64,000 bases of DNA from Armatimonadota bacterium (GTDB taxonomy: Bacteria; Armatimonadota; UBA5829; DTJY01), in assembly GCA_035528905.1 (NCBI GenBank), contig DATKXU010000082.1:57838-121837 (forward strand). The letters are read 5' to 3'. The notes under the pieces were generated by a model, which saw only the letters and a program-made list of their open reading frames with translations, searched no databases and was not told the DNA's origin. The translations under genes and the position numbers were made by a program. Below are positions 4,811 to 47,355 of this stretch, in pieces; within the stretch, counting starts at the first letter, position 1, and the number at the start of each line of letters is the position of its first letter.

Positions 4811-4851
4811 ACATGCCTCACAAAAGAAACGAGCAAACTGGCTTCCAGCGG

Positions 4852-4920
4852 CTGGTTCATAGTTGCTGGAGGAAAGGAGCCTGATCGGCACACATCCGCT
4901 TTCCAGCAACTATGAACCAG
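4852..4920. repeat. 19-bp perfect inverted repeat (ctggttcatagttgctgga ... tccagcaactatgaaccag) with a 31-nt loop, between the ftsZ stop and the radical SAM start
   Basis: Read directly from the sequence. No U-tract on either strand, so not a canonical intrinsic terminator. Confidence 0.6.
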
Positions 4921-4970
4921 CCACTAGAGATGCAGTTTGCTCAGTTCTTGCGTGTTGGAACGATCTGCTG

Positions 4971-7672: not shown

Positions 7673-8491
7673 CTAGTGCTTCCTTTCCGAGTCCACCGGC
7701 GCCGCATATAGGAACAGGGAACTGGTACTCCCGGAGTAGGCCGAGACAACCACATGGTCTCTTCGTTTTACCTTCACCATCTGCGACGCAAGCCCCTTGG
7801 TCGCACGCCAGTTATCGAGAATGCCGTTTGGCATCCTGAGCCCTGATTCCAGAGTGTTCGGCGGACCGACGGCTGTTATGACAAAAGGAGAGGCCATATC
7901 AACGTGATTGATCTGTATCGAACCTCCGACGCAACGTACGGCAGTTGAAGCGATGATGCGCTGTTCAGTATCCAGGTCGCGTATGCTTATCGCCTCCGCT
8001 CCGTTTGCGAAGAGCTCGTTTACGATATCGCGAATGTCCATGTCGTGGACTATGTAGTCGTCCTTGAGCACCGCCAGCGTGTCAGCGGGTATTCGGCCGA
8101 GGTAGTCTTGCAGGGTAACCTCCACGCCTTTGCCTTCCACGGGCATCAGGCCTGCGAGGAGTTTGACCCTCTGCAACTCCTCGGTGATGAGCCCGACCTC
8201 GGTCGTCTTCTTACCCCGGGCTTGCTGATAGTCGTCAATCTTCGCACGCAGGTCCGTAATCTCATTCCGCAGGAGTTTATTCTTGTCCTTCTCGTCAAGC
8301 AGTGCCTGTGCGAGCCCAGAAAAACGCGTGGTGGGGATACCGGAAATGCGTCGAACGCTCCACTGTGTTTTCAGTGCGGCGGCGAGAAGCATACCCAGTA
8401 TGAGACTTAGTATGGTCACCTGCCAAATCCATCCGCTGCGCTTGGGGTCGAGCGGTGCCATAGCCGAACAGTGCCTCCTGCAAGAGGACAT
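7673..8491 (-). CDS. DUF881-family (YlxW/YlxX-like) division-associated protein
   Basis: N-terminal TM, then coiled coil, then a C-terminal domain with AEAISIxD-type motif; position between ftsQ and sbp matches the Firmicutes ylxW/ylxX locus. Confidence 0.55.
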   Translation of the reverse strand: MSSCRRHCSAMAPLDPKRSGWIWQVTILSLILGMLLAAALKTQWSVRRISGIPTTRFSGLAQALLDEKDKNKLLRNEITDLRAKIDDYQQARGKKTTEVGLITEELQRVKLLAGLMPVEGKGVEVTLQDYLGRIPADTLAVLKDDYIVHDMDIRDIVNELFANGAEAISIRDLDTEQRIIASTAVRCVGGSIQINHVDMASPFVITAVGPPNTLESGLRMPNGILDNWRATKGLASQMVKVKRRDHVVVSAYSGSTSSLFLYAAPVDSERKH

Positions 8492-8689
8492 ACTCCCACT
8501 TCATTGGGGGACGGTAACGGAAGCCGGACCAGGCGCATGCGCCGCGCTGCAAACAATCGCCACCCGAAACCCTTCCGCGAGACGTCACGGGTGTCCAGTG
8601 AGAAGTTGCTTCTCGATACGCAGCAGGCTGTCAACGGCAGCATTCGGGACGGCCGACCAACCCAGAGAACCGCGTGGAAGCAGAAAAGG

Positions 8690-9469
8690 CTATTCCTTGT
8701 ACTTCAATGCGGGAGCCTCAGGAACAGTCAAATCTATATACGCCCCGCGCTGCCGAAACTCAGGAATCTGCTCAACCACCCGCGCGGCCATGTCGAGCTT
8801 GGCAGAAAGCTGCTCTGGCCTTCCCAGCTTGACCTGAAATCCGTCGCGAACATTTAAACACAAATCATTGCTTTGGTCAACGGTTATTTCGGCGACCTGG
8901 AAAATCTTTTTTTCGCGCACGAGAAGCAAGCACTTCCTGGCAGTGTTAAACGAGGAAGCCCTTATGGGGCGGCCAAGTACGATATGCCGCGGCACTTTGC
9001 ACGAGAGAATCGGCACCCCCGCTTTCGGATGCTCGGCGACGCGGAATGGCACCCCCGTAGAGTCAACCTCATACACGGCGCCGGTCGCATTCAGTATGAG
9101 ATCGGGCGTCCGCTCCACAATACGGACGATCAGTATATCCGGCAGCCTCCGATAGAGCCGTACTTCATTCACAACCGGATTCTCCATCACCCGATCAGCC
9201 ATAGCGCGTTTGTCTATGCGGAATATGTTCGTGCCTGGCCGCAAGCTGAGTCGCCGCGAAATGTCGTTGGAGGCGACCGTCTCGTTGCCAGTGAACCGTA
9301 TCCTCTTGATGCTGAACCACGGGGAGGTAAACGCGGCCACTCCAAGTTCGACCAATAGCATCACGAACAGCGCGGAGAGGATAAAGCGTTTCGCGTTGAG
9401 GACGTATCGCTTCCGGGCCCTGCGGCGAGCAAAGGATACTGGCTCGGAGCGTCTCTTCATGAGAGTCAT
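8690..9469 (-). CDS. ftsQ: Cell division protein FtsQ/DivIB (POTRA domain)
   Basis: Single TM followed by a POTRA-like segment (IKRIRFTGNETVASNDI...); follows ddl in the dcw order. Confidence 0.85.
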   Translation of the reverse strand: MTLMKRRSEPVSFARRRARKRYVLNAKRFILSALFVMLLVELGVAAFTSPWFSIKRIRFTGNETVASNDISRRLSLRPGTNIFRIDKRAMADRVMENPVVNEVRLYRRLPDILIVRIVERTPDLILNATGAVYEVDSTGVPFRVAEHPKAGVPILSCKVPRHIVLGRPIRASSFNTARKCLLLVREKKIFQVAEITVDQSNDLCLNVRDGFQVKLGRPEQLSAKLDMAARVVEQIPEFRQRGAYIDLTVPEAPALKYKE

Positions 9470-10470
9470 TCCTTTTCCAGCGCGTATCCGATAAGGCGGT
9501 CGAGAAGCTCAGGGAATTCGATACCGGCGGCCTGGGCTGCGCGCGGAAGCAGGCTGGTCGGCGTCATGCCCGGGATCGTGTTCAATTCGATAACGTAGAT
9601 ATCGTCGCCCCGAACCATCATGTCCGTCCTGGACATGCCTCGGCATCCGAGTGCCTTGTGGCAAGCGAGGCCGAGCTCCTCCGCCCGGCGATACAGATGC
9701 TTGGGGATGCGGGCGGGTACGATCTCCTCCGTGGCTCCGGGCGTGTACTTCGAGTAATAGTCATAGAAGCCGCCTTCGGGCACGATCTCGATCAGGGGCA
9801 GTATCTGCGGCTCGTCGTTTCCTATAACCGCTGCAGTAATCTCCGTTCCTTCGATGAACTCTTCCAGGAGGACATCATCGTCATAGGAGAAGGCCAGATC
9901 AAGGGCGGAAGGAAGATCCGAAGCGGTGCGCACAATGCTCAGTCCTATGGTAGAGCCCTGCTGGTTCGGTTTCACGACGACGGGATAGCCCAGCTCCCGA
10001 CCGATCCGCCGTGAGAGAGAATGCATATCGAACGGGCGCCGTATGGCTATTCCCTTTGGTATAGGGATGCCCTCGTGCTCCAGCATCTTCCGGGTCATTA
10101 TCTTATCGAGTGCCAGGGCGCTGGCCAGCACGCCCGACCCGACGTACGGGATCCCAAGCAGTTCGAGCAGGCCCTGTACGGTGCCGTCCTCTCCGAACTT
10201 CCCATGCAGAGCTATGATGACCACGTCAGGCTTTGGCTGAGAGCCATCAGGGCGAAGGATGTAGTCGAGCGGCAGCATCTCACCGGAAGCCGCAGACGAA
10301 CGGCATCTTCCGATTTCGGGCGATCCCATGCCGAAGCGAGCCGCGTCTACCGCCAAGGCGTTGTACTTGTCAGGATTCAGAGCGCCCAGTATCATCCTGC
10401 CGGTTGACAGAGATACCTCGCGCTCCTCGGATTTGCCACCCATGAGCACTGCGACATTAAGCCTGCTCAA
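9466..10470 (-). CDS. ddl: D-alanine--D-alanine ligase
   Basis: ATP-grasp motifs, N-terminal VAVLMGGKSEEREVSL, C-terminal ELNTIPGMT; overlaps ftsQ by 4 nt. Confidence 0.95.
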   Translation of the reverse strand: MSRLNVAVLMGGKSEEREVSLSTGRMILGALNPDKYNALAVDAARFGMGSPEIGRCRSSAASGEMLPLDYILRPDGSQPKPDVVIIALHGKFGEDGTVQGLLELLGIPYVGSGVLASALALDKIMTRKMLEHEGIPIPKGIAIRRPFDMHSLSRRIGRELGYPVVVKPNQQGSTIGLSIVRTASDLPSALDLAFSYDDDVLLEEFIEGTEITAAVIGNDEPQILPLIEIVPEGGFYDYYSKYTPGATEEIVPARIPKHLYRRAEELGLACHKALGCRGMSRTDMMVRGDDIYVIELNTIPGMTPTSLLPRAAQAAGIEFPELLDRLIGYALEKE

Positions 10471-27419: not shown

Positions 27420-27546
27420 ACGAGTTCAAAACGTGGATACAGAATACCCGATCCACCTGAAAAAAGCAAGCAGCGGGGCATCGGGCATGGGAGACTTGGC
27501 GACCGGGCGAAAGGGAGAATGGGTGAATGGGAGAAGGGGAGAACAT

Positions 27547-27592
27547 TGAACGTTCAACATCCAGTATCCAGCATCAAGCATCCAGTATCTAG
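27547..27592. repeat. Perfect palindrome TGAACGTTCA followed by two direct repeats CATCCAGTATC spaced 21 bp apart, upstream of the hppA promoter
   Basis: Read directly: tgaacgttca(27547-27556) acatccagtatccagcatcaagcatccagtatctag. Confidence 0.5.
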
Positions 27593-27645
27593 AATCACGC
27601 GGGACGATCCGCACACGGTACGCGGGCTGCCTTACGAGGCATTGG

Positions 27646-30457: not shown

Positions 30458-31525
30458 ATGCGACGCAAGGCCGCTACAAAGCCGGACGAGGCGAGCACCA
30501 CCGCCACAGCCCCCATCGAACCGGGAGGTGTGTTCATAAGCCACGTCCACGAGGACGAGCCTCTTGCCGAGGCTTTTGAATTACTTATCCACAACGTAAG
30601 CGCTGGTGTAGTCCCCACTTTCAGATCAACCGCAAAACAGTTTGGTGGGGGAATCCAATACGGCGAGGAATGGTTCCGCTGGATATGTGAAAGCGTAAAC
30701 AAGGCAAAGCACATTGTAGCTCTGCTGACTCCGGCAAGCGTAAGTCGTCCGTGGATTCTATTCGAAGCCGGCCTGGGAAAAGGAAAGTCTGATGGTGTGG
30801 TTTTTGGTGTCGGACTTGGAATTTCCCGCGAAGATGCCTATAAGGGGCCTTTTGCTGCGCTTCAAAACTGCGGCGCAGAAGAAAAAGAACTGGTAAAGCT
30901 GTGCAAGGAATTAATCGAGGGAACTCAGGCAAAACCACGTGACGAGATGATCAGCAAATGTGTTGCGGAATTTCGCGCTACGGTCGAGGCGCATTTCGCG
31001 AACCAGAAATCAGGAAAGAAGGCAAGCGAAGATCCGACCAGCGTTGCGGTCTTTCAAGCGTTGGAAGAAATGAAGCTCATGCTCCGGGATCAAACCCGAA
31101 TGTTTGAAACGGATATGCCAAGGTTTCCCAGGCGAGACCGCGACATTGAGCGCCTTACTATGGTTGTCTTTGAACACTCCGGATTGCTCGAATCTGAACC
31201 AAAACTGCACTTAGCTTTCCTCGCAGGGCTCGCTACTGAACTAGGATACTTCTTCGTAAAGCCGCTTGTCGATTACATAGTAAATTCAAAACAAGCCATC
31301 CCAGGGGAACGTCTTGATGGAATGCACTTCTTGCTGCATGATATGTTTATGCGCCTGGAACCCCGCGGCAAGATGGATCACCATTTGCTTAGAACCATTG
31401 AGCAGGCGCTTCATACACGCCTCGACCAAAGGCTCAGCTCTAAAAACACCGGTTCGCCAGGGAAGTTCACCCCCTCAACTGCCTTAAGGTCAAGGGTTGC
31501 GAAGGCCCGGAGCGACAATCCGTAA
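30458..31525 (+). CDS. TIR-domain protein (bacterial TIR NADase-like) with uncharacterised C-terminal ~200-aa helical domain
   Basis: [16 protein letters not shown] matches the bacterial TIR (D/V)FISHAxEDK box; [12 protein letters not shown] and [10 protein letters not shown] match the WxxxE catalytic-Glu region; RBS AGGAGGGG upstream; gene GC ~50% against ~63% flanking. Confidence 0.8.
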
Positions 31526-31628
31526 GACCGGGAGTTTTGGCTGCCAGGCTGCCAGATGGACATCAGCAGGAAGAAGTTACCTGAGTGGTGAAATGTATGA
31601 TCCGATCCTGCAGAGGAGGATAACCTCC

Positions 31629-31928
31629 ATGAGCTTGCACATCCACGTTAATCCCGAGCAGATAGCCGACTTTTGCCGTCGCAACCATATCCGCAGGCTA
31701 GCTTTCTTTGGGTCGGTTTTGACAGATGAATTTCGCCCGGACAGCGACGTTGATGTTCTGGTGGAATTCGAGCCGAATTACCGCGTCGGTTTGCTGCGCA
31801 TGGCCGAAATGGAAATAGAACTTTCCCGCATCATCGGGCAGAAAGCAGATATGCGGACCCCCAATGACCTGAGCAGGTACTTCAGAGATGAAGTTGTAGC
31901 GAAAGCTGAGGTGCAATATGCTGCCTAA
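31629..31928 (+). CDS. mntA: Nucleotidyltransferase-domain antitoxin MntA (minimal NTase, type VII TA)
   Basis: GS-x9-DxD NTase motif ([22 protein letters not shown]). Start set at ATG 31629, preceded by GAGGAGG; overlaps hepT by 11 nt. Confidence 0.8.
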
Positions 31929-32262
31929 AGACGATGCTATTCGTTTGCGCCATATGCTGGAGGCCGCGCAGGAAGCCGTTGCATTCACCAACAATCGAAA
32001 CAGACAGGACCTCGACGCTGATCGCATGCTAACTTTTGCGCTTGTTCACGCTATTGAGATAATCGGAGAGGCAGCTTCAAAGGTTAGTGCTGAGGGACGA
32101 TCAGCTTGTCCACGTTTACCTTGGACAAGTATTATCGGCATGCGAAACCGACTGATTCATGCGTATTTCGATATTGATCTTGACCGCGTCTGGGAAACGG
32201 TTACTGATGACTTGCCACCATTGATGGCCAAACTGGAAGCGATCATCTCGAAGAACGATTAG
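31918..32262 (+). CDS. hepT: HEPN-domain toxin HepT (DUF86)
   Basis: Rx4HxY HEPN RNase motif (RNRLIHAY); 114 aa; overlapping arrangement with the NTase gene typical of HepT/MntA. Confidence 0.85.
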
Positions 32263-33050
32263 ACTTAGGGCAGCCCTCAAAGTCCCGAATCATCCGCATT
32301 CTGCCCTAGCAGAATCAATTGTTCCAGCCGTTCCACCAGGCTGCGGATCGGGCGGCCTGCGGTATCGGGCCGGCTGGAAAGCTGCCGATACCTCTCCACT
32401 ATCTCCCGACGAACCTCCTGCGGCAAGATCGGGACTAGTATTGACTTTATCCGGTCGAAGTTGATTCCACACGGGCCGACGCCGCATTTCTCGCGGTGGA
32501 TCTGAAGGCGGGCGAACCGCGTTTGCAGGTAGACCGCCAGGTACTCCGGCTCTACATCTCTGACACGCACGAGATTGATGTGCTGGCTGATATTGCACGG
32601 CTCGTCCGAGTAGAAGACCGCCGCCCGGCCGATGCACCCTACCCCACTGTTTGCCAGAAGCAGGTCGCCCTTTTGTAGTCGGCTCCGCGCCGGATCATTA
32701 CGAGAGCCTGGTGGCACAAACCGTTCGGGTGAACGGATATCCACCCCGATCACGAAGCCCTCGCCGGTTGTGACGAGGTTCGCAGGTGTCAGCAGCCGGA
32801 CGCCGGATTCCGCCAACTCCCGTTTCCCCACCTGGCCGTAAGTCGTGTACTCGATCAATTCGCCCAAAGTGACCGCGTTCGGCAGGCCCCTCAGGAGGCG
32901 GAGGTTTTCGGTGTATTTACGGTGATAGTAGGCAGGATCCAATCTGTCGCCTGGGGACAAGATTTCCGCCGGAAAGACCACCCACGGCAGGCATTCGATT
33001 TCGGACTTGTCCGCCGGAGCCTTGGCATAGGAGGATTTGGGATTTCGGGT

Positions 33051-33178
33051 TGCGGATTGACCTACCCCCCTTCCTGCCTCCCCCCGAAGCGGAGGGAGGA
33101 GCACCTTCTCCCCTCTCCGCATCGGAGAGGGGCCGGGGGTGAGGTTTGGCTCGTCGGCTGCCGACCACTGTGCAAAAT
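33051..33178. repeat. Dispersed ~100-130-bp repeat, copy 1, inside the methyltransferase reading frame
   Basis: ~96% identical over ~95 bp to 47251-47355 (gcggagggaggagcaccttctcccctctccgcatcggagag...gaggtttggct.gtcggctgccgacca.tgtgcaaaat). Contains palindrome GTCGGCTGCCGAC and an imperfect hairpin; copy 1 has a 26-bp C-rich insertion. Confidence 0.75.
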
Positions 33179-33641
33179 CGGCGAACTGCTCGGCCAGGCG
33201 CTCAATTCCAGCCTGCCAGGAGGCACGAGATTCGAGTGCGGCGCTGAATACACGGCCCGGAAGCGCAGGATTCCTCTGGAAAACCAATACACTGGCCTTC
33301 GAAGCCGCGCCGGTGCGGTAAAACGTGTGCCGGGGAAGGCTGACAATCGCCCTGATCGCCGCGCGGCTCGAGAGCCATTCACGCACGTAGGAAAGCCGTG
33401 CGTTCGCCAGGATTCCGTCAGGCACAACCATCGCGACGTATCCGCCCGGCCTCGCAAGCTGCCAGAAGCGCTCCAGAAAGAGCACCTCGATCCGATACTT
33501 GGCGAGATCGGCGGCGTGTTGTCCATCCCGCCATATCGTGAAGTTTTCCCTGATGGCGCGAGCGAGCTGCTCGAAGTCCGGCGACGATCTCAGGCTCAAT
33601 GTGCCGAATGGAGGATTGCCGACGACCCAGTCGAAAGGAGT

Positions 33642-33684
33642 ATGGGGGTATGGGAGTGTGGGTGGATGGGAGTGTGGGTGGATG
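33642..33684. repeat. Tandem 16-bp duplication (ATGGGAGTGTGGGTGG x2, partial third) adjacent to a G5 tract, inside the methyltransferase
   Basis: Read directly: tatgggggtatgggagtgtgggtggatgggagtgtgggtggatg. On the coding strand it encodes the His/Pro/Thr-rich linker HTPIHPHSHTP. Confidence 0.8.
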
Positions 33685-34016
33685 TAGTTCTGTCCACATC
33701 TCCCAGTACGCATAAGCCGTCGCCGATGAAAAGGTTCGCGCGGCCCAGCAAGCCGTTTTCTTTCCAGGCTGCCGCCATCCGATTGTCTTTCTCGATGCCG
33801 AAAAGCCGATCTGGAGAAGTAATGCCGTGCTCCAGGGCATAGGCCAGAAAAGCACCTTCGCCGCACGCAGGGTCAATAATGCGCGGACACCGGGCATTGG
33901 AATCGAGGGCTCGGAGCATACGGTAGCACAGTTCGACTACCGGCTCGGGGGTGAAGTACTGGCCGAGCATCCTGGCGCGATCCATGCCCTGATATAGCAC
34001 AGAAACCCGCGCGTGG

Positions 34017-36029
34017 TCAACAGCCGACGCGAAGCGTCCTTACAACGCCGCCTTTCAAATCCGTGCGCATCCAGATTGCGTCGCCGGTAAACTCGAAGCC
34101 CAGGAATCGCTTGACCCTGCCGACCATCTCCTGCTCGTGGCAGATAACGAAAATGTCCTCGCATTCGGGAAGACGGATGGAAATCGCGGATATCTGTCCG
34201 GGGCGGGGTTCCGTTTCGTCTATCGTGCACCTCAGCGGCCGGACTTCCGGAACAACAGTTTTGCCCGCAGGAGACGGATAGAGCACAGTCTCAAAGGCTA
34301 TCGGCGCTACGCAAGTTCTGGTGAAAACCGCCGTGGGGGCAGGCTCGCGCTCGTTGTACTGGTAGGAAACGAATCCCAGAACAGGCGTCTCCTCCGCCTC
34401 AACAATGCGAACTTCCGCGTCATCCGACCTCACCACAGCCAAGTTCGCGGCATCAGGAACGTCGGTTCGAGCGAAACCCCTGCCCGCCGCAACTTTTCCC
34501 GGCACGAAATGCCAGAGTTGCTCGAACTTGTGCTCGCCATCGCCCCTCAGGAGATCAATCACAATCCAGTATTCCGGCTTAACGAAGAAGACCTTCCGAA
34601 TATGGGCCACGGAGGCGTCGTTCTGCGGCCCGAAGCCCTCGTCGTATGCACCTTCGGCATAGTCAAACTCCGCCGACGACACCCACCGATTACCTGGCGC
34701 AGGCGCCTTCACGACCCACCTGCTCGGATCGGTTGCTGCGCGGTTCTGGCCCATCCCATCCACGAGGATAAGATTATGCCCGCCCGCCCCATGAAAAGGC
34801 GCTCCAACGTGATAAGAGTAGCGCCCGGGATCCACAACAAGCGCCCTGCCATAGGCGCAGACCTCGATATTCAGCTTGTCTTCGTGCTGGTGCCGCTCGC
34901 CGAAGGGCCCGGCATCCATCATCAGATACAAATCCTGCGGACCATCGCCGGTTCGCATGCAAGATATCCCGGCGTAGGGGAAGAAGACGGAATCGCGCTC
35001 CCGCTCGATTTCCAGCAGAGCCTTGGTCTCCGGCGCCTTGTCCGCGCCGAGCGAGATAGCCGGCTCCACAATCCAGTAAGACGCGCTGCCCAGGTCGGAG
35101 TCGTTGATCATCGGCCAGTTTGCGTCGGGCCGCATGATGCCGGCATTGAACTGCATCATCCTCCTCAGCCCATCATAGTACTCTGCTGGAAAATCGAATC
35201 CGGGAGCGATCCGTTTCAGGACTATCGGCTGGAGGAAGTTCCAGAGACTGAGGGTATGGTAGGAGGCCGTCAACTCGAACTGAGCGCCGTCCGGGTATAC
35301 CTGTGCCGCCATTCCCTCGGACAAGCGTCCGATCGCCGCCTCGCGCCACTCCGGGGCATCCCTGAACTCCGGAAAAAGCGCGCCGACGTGCAGAAGGCCG
35401 TTGTTCTCCATAAGAGTCCAGTTGCAGGCCGTCGGGAACTTCAGCAGATAATCGGCGTGGTCGGCGAATGACTTCAGCATCAGGATCCGAGCGTCCACGG
35501 TGAAGCTGGGCGAGTTTCTGAAGAAATGCCAGGCCATCGGCCACGAGCTGAGCATCCGGATGCCCGCCTCTATCGTGCGCCAGGCCGCGCTGTCGTTCGC
35601 ACACTCCGCCGGGACAGGGTTGCTGATTACCCAGTCGGCGACGATTTCATTGAAATCCGCGGCGTATTCCTCATCCCCGGTGCGCTGATACTCCTGAGCG
35701 AGCGTCTGGAAGAAATAGTGGCGGTTCAGTACCCACGTCCACTCGCGGTCGCCAAACGGATTAGTAGCCCAGGCGATCTTGCCTTCCAGCTGAGCCGTTT
35801 TCAGAAGAATGGTGAACTTCCGCGCCAGGATTTCATCGGCTGTTGCATCATCCTGAAACACGAACAGCCTTTGCTCCAACTTATCAGAATACCAACCGGG
35901 CTGCCCGCGGGTCCTATAGTACTCGACAAGCAATCCCTTTGCCCGGTTGCAGTTCCCGGACGTCACCGCTGCCTTTACAGCCTCCAGGCCGGGGCGCTCA
36001 AGGTCCAGCAGATCAAATACATCCAGCAC
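34017..36029 (-). CDS. Heparinase II/III-like polysaccharide lyase (alginate-lyase-like N-domain + heparinase II/III domain)
   Basis: 670 aa. WATNPFGDREWTWVLNRHYFF is alginate-lyase-like; central HQHEDKLNIEVCAYGRALVVDPGRYSY resembles the heparinase II/III HxHxD region. Confidence 0.7.
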   Translation of the reverse strand: MLDVFDLLDLERPGLEAVKAAVTSGNCNRAKGLLVEYYRTRGQPGWYSDKLEQRLFVFQDDATADEILARKFTILLKTAQLEGKIAWATNPFGDREWTWVLNRHYFFQTLAQEYQRTGDEEYAADFNEIVADWVISNPVPAECANDSAAWRTIEAGIRMLSSWPMAWHFFRNSPSFTVDARILMLKSFADHADYLLKFPTACNWTLMENNGLLHVGALFPEFRDAPEWREAAIGRLSEGMAAQVYPDGAQFELTASYHTLSLWNFLQPIVLKRIAPGFDFPAEYYDGLRRMMQFNAGIMRPDANWPMINDSDLGSASYWIVEPAISLGADKAPETKALLEIERERDSVFFPYAGISCMRTGDGPQDLYLMMDAGPFGERHQHEDKLNIEVCAYGRALVVDPGRYSYHVGAPFHGAGGHNLILVDGMGQNRAATDPSRWVVKAPAPGNRWVSSAEFDYAEGAYDEGFGPQNDASVAHIRKVFFVKPEYWIVIDLLRGDGEHKFEQLWHFVPGKVAAGRGFARTDVPDAANLAVVRSDDAEVRIVEAEETPVLGFVSYQYNEREPAPTAVFTRTCVAPIAFETVLYPSPAGKTVVPEVRPLRCTIDETEPRPGQISAISIRLPECEDIFVICHEQEMVGRVKRFLGFEFTGDAIWMRTDLKGGVVRTLRVGC

Positions 36030-36642: not shown

Positions 36643-36676
36643 GGATGGAGTATTGGAGTAGTGGAGTGTTGGAGTA
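36643..36676. repeat. Four tandem 8-bp repeats GGAGTnnT (ggagtatt ggagtagt ggagtgtt ggagtaat) in the 670-bp intergenic gap
   Basis: Read directly; member of a G-rich micro-repeat family also seen at 27520, 33642 and 46262. Confidence 0.7.
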
Positions 36677-44874: not shown

Positions 44875-46407
44875 CTATTCCGGCACAACAATCACGTCGG
44901 CCTGCTTCCTTACTCGCACAACCGGGGTCAAGTCAGGCTGTCTGTCGCCGACCCCCGTGACTACAACGTACTCGCCTTCGCCCGGCGGCGTTAGCCCGTC
45001 ACACCGCACCTTCAGCCCCGGATCGGGAAGGGAGCCATCGTTCACGTAGAAGCATGCGGAGCCGACGGCCTTGACGCGCCCACAAGTCGTCACAAGCAGG
45101 CCGATATTGCTCAGCCCGGCGCCGCCGACTCTATCCGCCGGCATGCCGAGCACCTTCGGGGGGTCGCCCGACGACACAAAGTACACGGAAGCCTTGTCGA
45201 GGAACCGCTCGCCATTGAGCGTGCTCAGAATGCCTATGACATCCACGCGATCGCCTTCCGCTGCCGAATCGCTCGTCTTCACGCGGATTCCGGACGAGCG
45301 CTGTTCCTCCTGGACGTACAACTCCCCATCGAAAACGGCGCTGACCACTTTCTGAGAGAGCGAGATCACGCTCCCATCAGGTTGGCTCTTCGCAGGCCCG
45401 ATGCTCTGACCGCCCGGCAGGGGCGACACGTCCGACACCGCATCAATCTCCGCCGAAATCTCGCCAAGCTCGCCCGCCGAATCTCCCGCGAGGGCATCCG
45501 TGATCCGTATGAAGTCGAAATACGGAATTTGGGCATACACATATGGAGCCACCGGCACACCGGGCGAAGTCTGCTTCACCGCGGCCGCTATGTCGAAAGC
45601 ATCTCCGCCGCCCGAACCTTCATCAATCAATAGGCTCTGTGGATCGCCCGCGTAGCTCTGGCGATCCGGCACTGTGTAAAACTCCTCGGGCGTTTTCCCC
45701 GGCGGCAATCCAAGGGTCGGCGTGTACTCGGCATAGTGCCGGAGCACAGTGCGCGAGTCGCCGGTATCGCAATTCGGGGCCGGGGAGCCGACCAGCTCTG
45801 ACGGGAGCTTGTTCGGCAGCACCAGGAACCACTCGTCGTCCGGGAGGCCGTTTCCGTTCGCGTCCATGCTGATCTCGACGAAGGCGGGCTCCTGCCAGCG
45901 ATGCCCGGGGTCGCCGCTTACCCAGGTCGGGTTGCCGAATACGATGAAATCCAGGCCGTGCGGGTTCCTTGGATCGTCCCAGACCGGCCGATTGAAGTCG
46001 AGCGTGATCCAGCCGTGATCGCCCAGCGTGACGAGGGAGCTGTTATCCGGGGCGGTTGCCGAAATCCCGTATGGCCGCCCGAGCGCCCGCTCACGATCGT
46101 TGAATCGCGAGTCATTAACCCACTGCCCCGGCCCTGGCTCATACTCGATCACGCAGTCGGCGAACGGCCACGCGCCAGCCCATGCGTTAACCGCCAAGAC
46201 GCCAAGCAGACAAAGGAAGAGAGACTGCAGACGGCAGATCCGCCTCAGGCGGAACTGCAGATGATGAGTGACGAGTGAGGAGTGATGAGTGATGGGAGAT
46301 GGTATTCCTCCCCCCTCTCCCTTGCTCCCGCTCTTCCATTGTGCGCCCGGACCCCTGGATCCCTGGACCCCTGGACCCCTGATTCCCTTAGTCCTTCGAC
46401 TCCACAC
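44875..46407 (-). CDS. Hypothetical membrane-anchored/secreted protein with Gly/Pro/His-rich N-terminal tail
   Basis: ATG at 46407; hydrophobic anchor LQSLFLCLLGVLAVNAWA after a low-complexity tail encoded by micro-repeats; no recognisable domain. Confidence 0.45.
   Translation of the reverse strand: MWSRRTKGIRGPGVQGSRGPGAQWKSGSKGEGGGIPSPITHHSSLVTHHLQFRLRRICRLQSLFLCLLGVLAVNAWAGAWPFADCVIEYEPGPGQWVNDSRFNDRERALGRPYGISATAPDNSSLVTLGDHGWITLDFNRPVWDDPRNPHGLDFIVFGNPTWVSGDPGHRWQEPAFVEISMDANGNGLPDDEWFLVLPNKLPSELVGSPAPNCDTGDSRTVLRHYAEYTPTLGLPPGKTPEEFYTVPDRQSYAGDPQSLLIDEGSGGGDAFDIAAAVKQTSPGVPVAPYVYAQIPYFDFIRITDALAGDSAGELGEISAEIDAVSDVSPLPGGQSIGPAKSQPDGSVISLSQKVVSAVFDGELYVQEEQRSSGIRVKTSDSAAEGDRVDVIGILSTLNGERFLDKASVYFVSSGDPPKVLGMPADRVGGAGLSNIGLLVTTCGRVKAVGSACFYVNDGSLPDPGLKVRCDGLTPPGEGEYVVVTGVGDRQPDLTPVVRVRKQADVIVVPE
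46349..46388. repeat. Five tandem 8-bp repeats GGAyCCCT, and an adjacent GAGTGATGAGTGATGGGAG block (46262-46302), at the 5' end of the 44875..46407 gene
   Basis: Read directly; encode GPGVQGSRGPGAQ and HHSSLVTHH in the N-terminal tail. Confidence 0.7.
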
Positions 46408-47250: not shown

Positions 47251-47355
47251 TGCGGATTGCCCAAAGCGGAGGGAGGAGCACCTTCTCCCCTCTCCGCATC
47301 GGAGAGAAGCCGGGGCTGAGGTTTGGCTGGTCGGCTGCCGACCAGTGTGCAAAAT
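47251..47355. repeat. Dispersed ~100-bp repeat, copy 2 (5' leader of the DUF1559 gene)
   Basis: ~96% identical to 33051-33178 minus that copy's 26-bp insertion; immediately followed by a terminator-like hairpin. Confidence 0.75.

Follow-up and report, generated by a model that had tools for sequence, protein, structure and literature searches.

A DNA methyltransferase gene of an uncultured environmental bacterium of the Armatimonadota is present in public metagenome assemblies as both ON and OFF alleles, which lie in near-clonal DNA and differ in a short tandem repeat. This repeat-driven ON/OFF polymorphism is real, and is neither a dead gene nor an error in a G tract. The window (the whole 64,000-nt stretch of DNA that was analyzed) carries an out-of-frame (OFF) allele at 32277..34000 on the minus strand, identified by Pfam matches, by an intact allele of the same strain (protein P0123) and by its dN/dS ratios. 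We consider it probable that the gene encodes a conserved, solitary m6A methyltransferase whose reading frame depends on how many copies of a 16-bp repeat are present, and that slippage of this repeat gives rise to ON and OFF alleles in the population.

The window allele is divided between two reading frames. The upstream frame (33596..34000, minus strand) encodes a truncated product of 134 aa, MLYQGMDRARMLGQYFTPEP...DPACGEGAF...GDGL, with motif X (YFTPEP) and motif I (DPACGEGAF); it then runs through a His/Pro/Thr-rich stretch and reaches a stop codon 36 nt beyond the repeat array. A 529-aa ORF in the next frame (32277..33866, minus strand), ...PFDWVVGNPPFG..., carries motif IV (NPPF, in the context FDWVVGNPPFG), the remaining catalytic domain, a linker, an HsdS-like recognition domain matching Methylase_S, and the C-terminal helix. 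The two frames overlap by 271 nt (33596-33866), and joining them requires one additional base or the loss of two. The first-pass annotation, in which the strand was missing, had reported a frameshift interrupting a methyltransferase gene in this repeat region, and the separation of the motif X/I frame from the frame with motif IV and the recognition domain is confirmed. Its estimate of about 640 aa for the fused enzyme was too high, as the actual product is 569-579 aa. Computed repairs gave 574 aa from the GTG start when G5 is changed to G6 (the addition of one G does fuse the frames, as had been claimed), 579 aa when a third 16-mer is added, and 563 aa when both 16-mers are removed; P0123 is called at 569 aa. 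Deletion of both 16-mers restores the frame arithmetically and was considered as an ON state. It was rejected, as no such allele is in the collection and the loops of relatives are long. The database entry for this gene (P0001, HUV05216.1, 'MAG TPA: N-6 DNA methylase [Armatimonadota bacterium]', 478 aa) corresponds to part of the downstream frame, and the annotated 'N-6 DNA methylase' is thus the 3' part of a frameshifted allele and an incomplete protein.

The frameshift lies in an octamer-derived array of six AYACTCCC-like units in gene orientation (33634..33684, minus strand; detected by TRF), which codes for the loop between motifs III and IV. TRF reports the stretch 33637-33684 both as 3.0 copies of period 16 and as 5.2 copies of period 8. 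Within the array are two perfect copies of a 16-mer (33650..33681, minus strand), ATCCACCCACACTCCC in gene orientation; on the plus strand they read as two perfect copies of ATGGGAGTGTGGGTGG followed by ATG. A perfect 32-nt tandem duplication would, judged by its length, be far beyond chance. These copies form the proposed switch, three of which restore the frame. The adjacent G5 tract (33644..33648, minus strand; C5 in gene orientation) is not the switch, being of equal length in the intact allele on contig L058 and in the relative L002. The first-pass annotation had placed the lesion at this G5 tract beside a 16-bp duplication; both repeats are where it put them, but the missing bases are one 16-mer and not a G. 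These bases fall inside the 16-mer repeat, 5' of the G5 tract, because the C5 run is unchanged in the intact L002 and is there read in the downstream frame. The 16-mer had been regarded as a mere neighbor of the G tract, yet with the advice that its copy number be checked, and that number does vary between assemblies (two or three copies).

An exact look-up of the 90% protein cluster of P0001 returned four more members. P0123 (569 aa; JGI, two contigs, the longest of 126.8 kb) represents the intact three-copy allele; called from an internal MLGQ start, it equals the three-copy reconstruction residue for residue minus the first 10 residues. P0121 (124 aa) and P0122 (440 aa), on three ENA contigs of up to 171.8 kb, reproduce the frameshift of the window, P0121 being the upstream truncated product as called on those contigs. 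P0124 (130 aa, one ENA contig) represents a third allele. At the DNA level, ATCCACCCACACTCCC is present twice in the window and in contigs L059 and L067 (loop of 53 nt, out of frame) and three times in L058 (69 nt, in frame). It is also present three times in L060 (one ENA contig), where CACAC in the first unit is expanded to CACACAC and the extra AC yields a loop of 71 nt, out of frame. The two-copy allele is carried by the window and by at least two ENA contigs of 150-170 kb.

Outside the array the flanks are 99.94-100% identical to the window, and no indel other than the array was seen in up to 21 kb across ten loci on nine distinct contigs, in a comparison of samples that apparently come from one project and of assemblies that may not be fully independent. 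Two other repeat arrays (27487-27543 and 36646-36676) are invariant in the contigs that cover them, which carry the two-copy allele or end inside the methyltransferase array. Look-ups via the neighboring HepT and heparinase genes returned mostly contigs that break at a dispersed element (described below) or inside the array, with one further two-copy contig (L067) and no new allele. A metagenome scan with a flank pattern found only relatives of 73-80% identity (L004 and L005, both in frame) and no new alleles. A scan of genome contigs did not recover the species of the window, only relatives of at most 70% identity, which served for synteny, and a literature search for the sample identifiers gave no match. 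With one intact and two different out-of-frame alleles in otherwise identical DNA, the alternatives of a dead gene and of an assembly error are largely excluded. Repeat slippage in a methyltransferase gene, as the first-pass annotation had suggested, best explains the switch, given ON and OFF copy-number alleles in near-identical DNA.

Intact relatives help to place these alleles in order. A homologue search returned the window's own P0001 together with intact proteins of 561-568 aa at 69-80% identity, and in all of these relatives GDGL and FDWVVGNPPFG are separated by a low-complexity loop that varies and is often of the HTPILPHSHTP type. DNA alignment with three intact relatives shows the AYACTCCC-like octamer array, with the window lacking 16 nt relative to L002 and 10 nt relative to L001 and L003; arrays of other length and sequence occupy the same place in relatives. 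The three-copy loop (69 nt) has the length of the L002 loop, and the two peptides align without a gap (STHTPIHPHSHPPTLPYPHTPFDW versus STNTPILPHSHTPKLPYPHTSFDW), so the in-frame three-copy length is most likely ancestral, with each OFF allele derived from it in a single step. In a sister lineage the array is imperfect, and two independent contigs that differ by 15 SNPs in 9.6 kb have identical arrays. Because this imperfect array is unchanged despite the 15 SNPs, the perfect 16-mers appear to change much faster than single bases. The dN/dS values between the intact allele and three relatives (0.23-0.32 overall and 0.16-0.24 in the recognition domain) indicate that the methyltransferase gene is under purifying selection.

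The enzyme itself is predicted to belong to the gamma class of N6-adenine methyltransferases and to have an HsdS-type recognition domain fused to it. The repaired protein matches the Pfam families N6_Mtase (PF02384; 69.2 bits, cut-off 20.4), Eco57I (PF07669; 34.7 bits, cut-off 25.3) and Methylase_S (26.6 bits, cut-off 22). NCBIfam gives below-threshold matches only (MAD2, MAD5, hsdM and PglX), and PADLOC calls a Type II methyltransferase. The best PDB sequence matches are BsaXI (1.6e-13), M.TaqI, the StySJI M subunit, and EcoKI S and M. Motifs X, I and IV follow in gamma order and are invariant in the alignment; in P0123, YFTPEP begins at residue 5, DPACGEGAF at 33 and NPPF at 124. The AlphaFold model of the intact allele has a pLDDT of 82.7 and a pTM of 0.82, and its full-length structural neighbors in Foldseek are CamA and M.BseCI (TM 0.57-0.62) and M.TaqI (0.68-0.72, normalized to the target). 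The earlier description of an M.TaqI-like N6-adenine methyltransferase with an HsdS-like recognition domain agrees with the Pfam, PDB and Foldseek matches and is a fair one at the level of the fold. Besides the chain termini, only residues 91-114 and 285-327 of P0123 have a pLDDT below 50. Residues 91-114 overlap the array-encoded peptide (residues 97-117), which suggests a disordered loop between well-folded elements, and residues 285-327 overlap the linker with the dispersed repeat element. BREX membership was rejected on NCBIfam scores.

No restriction endonuclease or HsdR was recognized in the six genomic contexts examined, where a few small ORFs lack a Pfam match and might encode an unrecognized nuclease, and the absence of an evident endonuclease noted in the first-pass annotation extends to the contexts of relatives. 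Neighboring domains in the window, L001, L003, L059 and the more distant L006-L008 are of housekeeping, toxin-antitoxin or TIR type. The order heparinase II/III-like gene, methyltransferase, HepT/MNT and H+-pyrophosphatase is kept in L001, L003, L058 and L059. In the distant relatives (best-segment identity 49-70%) a fumarase gene lies upstream, and the H+-pyrophosphatase gene still adjoins the methyltransferase. By its conserved position, the gene behaves like an orphan methyltransferase that is inherited vertically within this Armatimonadota clade. The heparinase II/III-like gene (670 aa; 34017-36029, minus strand) ends 16 nt before the GTG start of the methyltransferase on the same strand, and the two may be co-transcribed. 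It was rejected as a functional partner, being a neighbor only in close relatives (69-80%), with fumarase in its place in L006-L008. A toxin-antitoxin pair of a nucleotidyltransferase (MNT) and HepT (31497-32262, plus strand) converges on the methyltransferase gene; it adjoins the gene in L001, L003, L058 and L059 and is not found there in the more distant L006-L008. Between this pair and the H+-pyrophosphatase gene lies a 355-aa ORF (30458-31525, plus strand) that matches TIR_2 weakly (26.2 bits, under the threshold of 28) and also PADLOC TIR-TM (1.3e-07). It stands at this place in this lineage only and is absent there from L001 and L003, and it probably represents a defense-type gene inserted in this lineage. 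In L008 (OY970325.1, a 5.37-Mb chromosome-level MAG), the H+-pyrophosphatase region at 7953-9500 consists of short fragmented ORFs only, which suggests frameshift errors in that assembly and calls for caution on its repeat lengths.

Repeats are found at a second place in the gene and elsewhere in the window. The linker between the catalytic and recognition domains contains a 96-nt dispersed element (33083..33178) with a hairpin, CCCCTCTCCGCATCGGAGAGGGG, which is read in frame and translates as FAQWSAADEPNLTPGPSPMRRGEKVLLPPLRG. A second copy, 94% identical, lies at 47260-47355 in an intergenic region upstream of a prepilin-type gene. The element is evidently tolerated in the linker, since the intact allele carries it too. 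At the same linker position, relatives L002 and L003 have a different palindromic element. The dispersed element is also where several of the Logan and JGI contigs end. Between genes, the window has further arrays with units of 7-8 nt, at 27487-27543 (ATGGGAGA), 27554-27597 (CATCCAG), 36646-36676 (TGGAGTAT), 46262-46294 (TGATGAG) and 46349-46381 (GGACCCCT); the octamer array of the methyltransferase resembles a member of this genome-wide class of repeats that lies within a coding region. In homologues P0009, P0014, P0019 and P0027 the linker contains the reverse-complement reading (MGVWEYGS...). An inverted repeat at 4844-4928 has 27-nt arms, 93% complementary and 31 nt apart.

In the mechanism that we propose, the number of perfect 16-bp direct repeats in the motif III-IV loop would determine the reading frame. 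As 16 is 15 + 1 (1 modulo 3), each unit gained or lost would shift the frame: three copies would be ON and yield the intact enzyme of 569-579 aa, and two or four would be OFF. With two copies, translation would stop after 134 aa to leave a fragment with motifs X and I-III only, so that the SAM-binding half would be parted from the NPPF catalytic half and the recognition domain. Loss of methylation would be expected in the OFF state, because the downstream frame is without the SAM-binding motif. The copy number would change by slipped-strand mispairing or unequal exchange between the perfect repeats, and slipped-strand mispairing is the most likely cause. The gene would then act as a contingency or phase-variation switch altering genome-wide methylation.

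The first-pass annotation had assigned the switch to slippage of the homopolymer from G5 to G6. One added G does restore an open frame of 574 aa, but the tract has five bases in all five sequenced alleles, ON and OFF, and the intact L058 and L002 read the same five-base run in the downstream frame. In mononucleotide tracts appreciable slippage needs 7-9 nt (PMC7383803), far more than this tract offers, and the 64-kb window holds 67 G/C runs of at least 5 nt and none of at least 7. The tract being invariant in length and below known phase-varying lengths, we regard this origin of the switch as very improbable. We give equally little credence to an OFF allele that is still active, through programmed +1 ribosomal frameshifting or as a split methyltransferase assembled from two separately translated halves. 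The overlap of the frames, and a downstream frame that keeps motif IV if started at an upstream GTG or ATG, would allow for it, but no recognizable frameshift signal was found on reading the overlap by eye, the overlap arose by accident from an indel that the ON allele does not have, and a split gene occurs in none of the intact relatives examined. An artefact of assembly or sequencing, in which the true sequence always has three copies and one is collapsed in some assemblies, is improbable, if less so. Assemblers classically err at repeats, short contigs carry the minority alleles L058 and L060, and a Logan contig built at k=31 (L068) breaks off within the array. However, the NCBI MAG has the two-copy allele, as do at least three MEGAHIT assemblies from ENA with k141 in their names (two were fetched), clean 16-nt indels are not an Illumina error product, and the other repeat arrays do not vary among covering contigs. 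Both k = 141 and the read length exceed the array (at most 71 nt), which therefore forms no graph cycle at that k; collapse is unlikely for this reason. The end of L068 within the array would be expected if that sample has at least three copies, because only then are 30-mers repeated.

A more serious competitor, though one we still hold to be unlikely, is one-way loss of function: a dispensable or costly methyltransferase in which independent inactivating indels (loss of a 16-mer, gain of AC) segregate or sweep, with the repeat as a mutational hotspot and no reversible switch. The only steps that can be inferred run from ON to OFF, with a single step separating each OFF allele from the three-copy allele, and reversion from OFF to ON was not seen. 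In at least three assemblies the long contigs carry the OFF allele, which would fit a rise in its frequency, and the tract is short relative to typical criteria and rates. Against such decay, no further lesion interrupts the 1.6-kb downstream frame, the gene is under purifying selection and keeps its position in relatives down to 49% identity, and the ON allele also dominates a 126.8-kb contig. Remodeling of the array in this lineage at the in-frame length of L002 suggests, moreover, repeated gain and loss under selection for frame.

We return to the copy-number switch, which can be compared with published criteria. Under those of Atack et al., the tract lies inside a methyltransferase ORF (array 33634-33684, between motifs III and IV), its unit is not divisible by three (16 nt, with a sub-unit of 8 nt), the ON allele L058 has the required three or more units (3 perfect units; the G5 tract fails here), and the repeat number varies among strains (two copies, three copies, and three copies plus AC). 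Tract-length criteria are at least 9 units for mononucleotide, at least 5 for dinucleotide and at least 3 for longer repeats (PMC7383803). In its sequence, the locus has the features expected of a phase-variable methyltransferase gene. Phase variation by definition also requires rapid, reversible switching (PMC11475388). Two or three copies of a 16-mer make a short tract, and the switching rate may be far below that of classical phase variation. A broader reading, which we put forward tentatively, is that a core-like orphan m6A methyltransferase, constant in its position within a free-living, uncultured lineage of Armatimonadota, serves as a true reversible environmental epigenetic switch (a phasevarion), built from octamer repeats that are dispersed in the same genome and were recruited into a tolerant loop of the catalytic domain; this loop and the inter-domain linker might then be landing pads for in-frame insertions of repeat elements across the family.

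To our knowledge, nearly all phase-variable methyltransferases described so far come from host-adapted pathogens, and they have usually been inferred from repeat tracts alone. What sets the present case apart is its host, from an uncultured environmental phylum, the orphan M.TaqI/CamA-like fusion, and the long repeat unit, and free-living phyla too may use contingency-type control of DNA methylation. As the read sets are public, allele frequencies can be counted directly in each sample.

The enzyme resembles M.TaqI, M.BseCI and CamA, itself a conserved orphan enzyme, in its order of motifs (X, I, then IV as NPPF) and its C-terminal DNA-recognition domain. Sequence identity to these is merely 12-17%, however, and unlike them the present enzyme has a recognition domain that matches Methylase_S (HsdS type) with an HsdS-like terminal helix, and two long repeat-encoded insertions predicted to be disordered. 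With Type I (HsdM + HsdS) and Type IIB (BsaXI) systems it shares its best PDB sequence matches and the HsdS-like recognition domain, but it is one fused polypeptide with a single recognition domain, and no HsdR or nuclease domain or gene was found. Assignment to a Type I restriction-modification system was rejected, as M and half an S are fused, HsdR is missing, and TIGR00497 (hsdM) scores 22.6 bits against a cut-off of 242.75. The methylation-associated defense system (MADS) provides the best partial NCBIfam matches, MAD2 and MAD5, to the catalytic core and the S-like domain. Membership in MADS was likewise rejected, as MAD2 (88.7 bits) and MAD5 (42.2 bits) fall below cut-offs of 720 and 400 and no other MADS genes are nearby. 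The closest parallel in regulation is with phasevarions, namely the Type III mod genes of Haemophilus, Neisseria, Helicobacter and Moraxella and the Type I hsdM/hsdS genes with SSRs (PMC5909438, PMC7383803). As in these, a tract within the ORF of an N6-adenine methyltransferase has a unit whose length is not divisible by 3, the frame would toggle whenever a unit is gained or lost, and copy number differs between otherwise identical strains. Unlike phasevarions, which usually have units of 1-8 nt in longer tracts, the locus described here has a 16-nt unit (two octamers) in 2-3 copies; its enzyme is a solitary M.TaqI/CamA-like fusion rather than a Type III Mod or a Type I HsdM/S, and its host is an uncultured environmental member of the Armatimonadota rather than a host-adapted pathogen.
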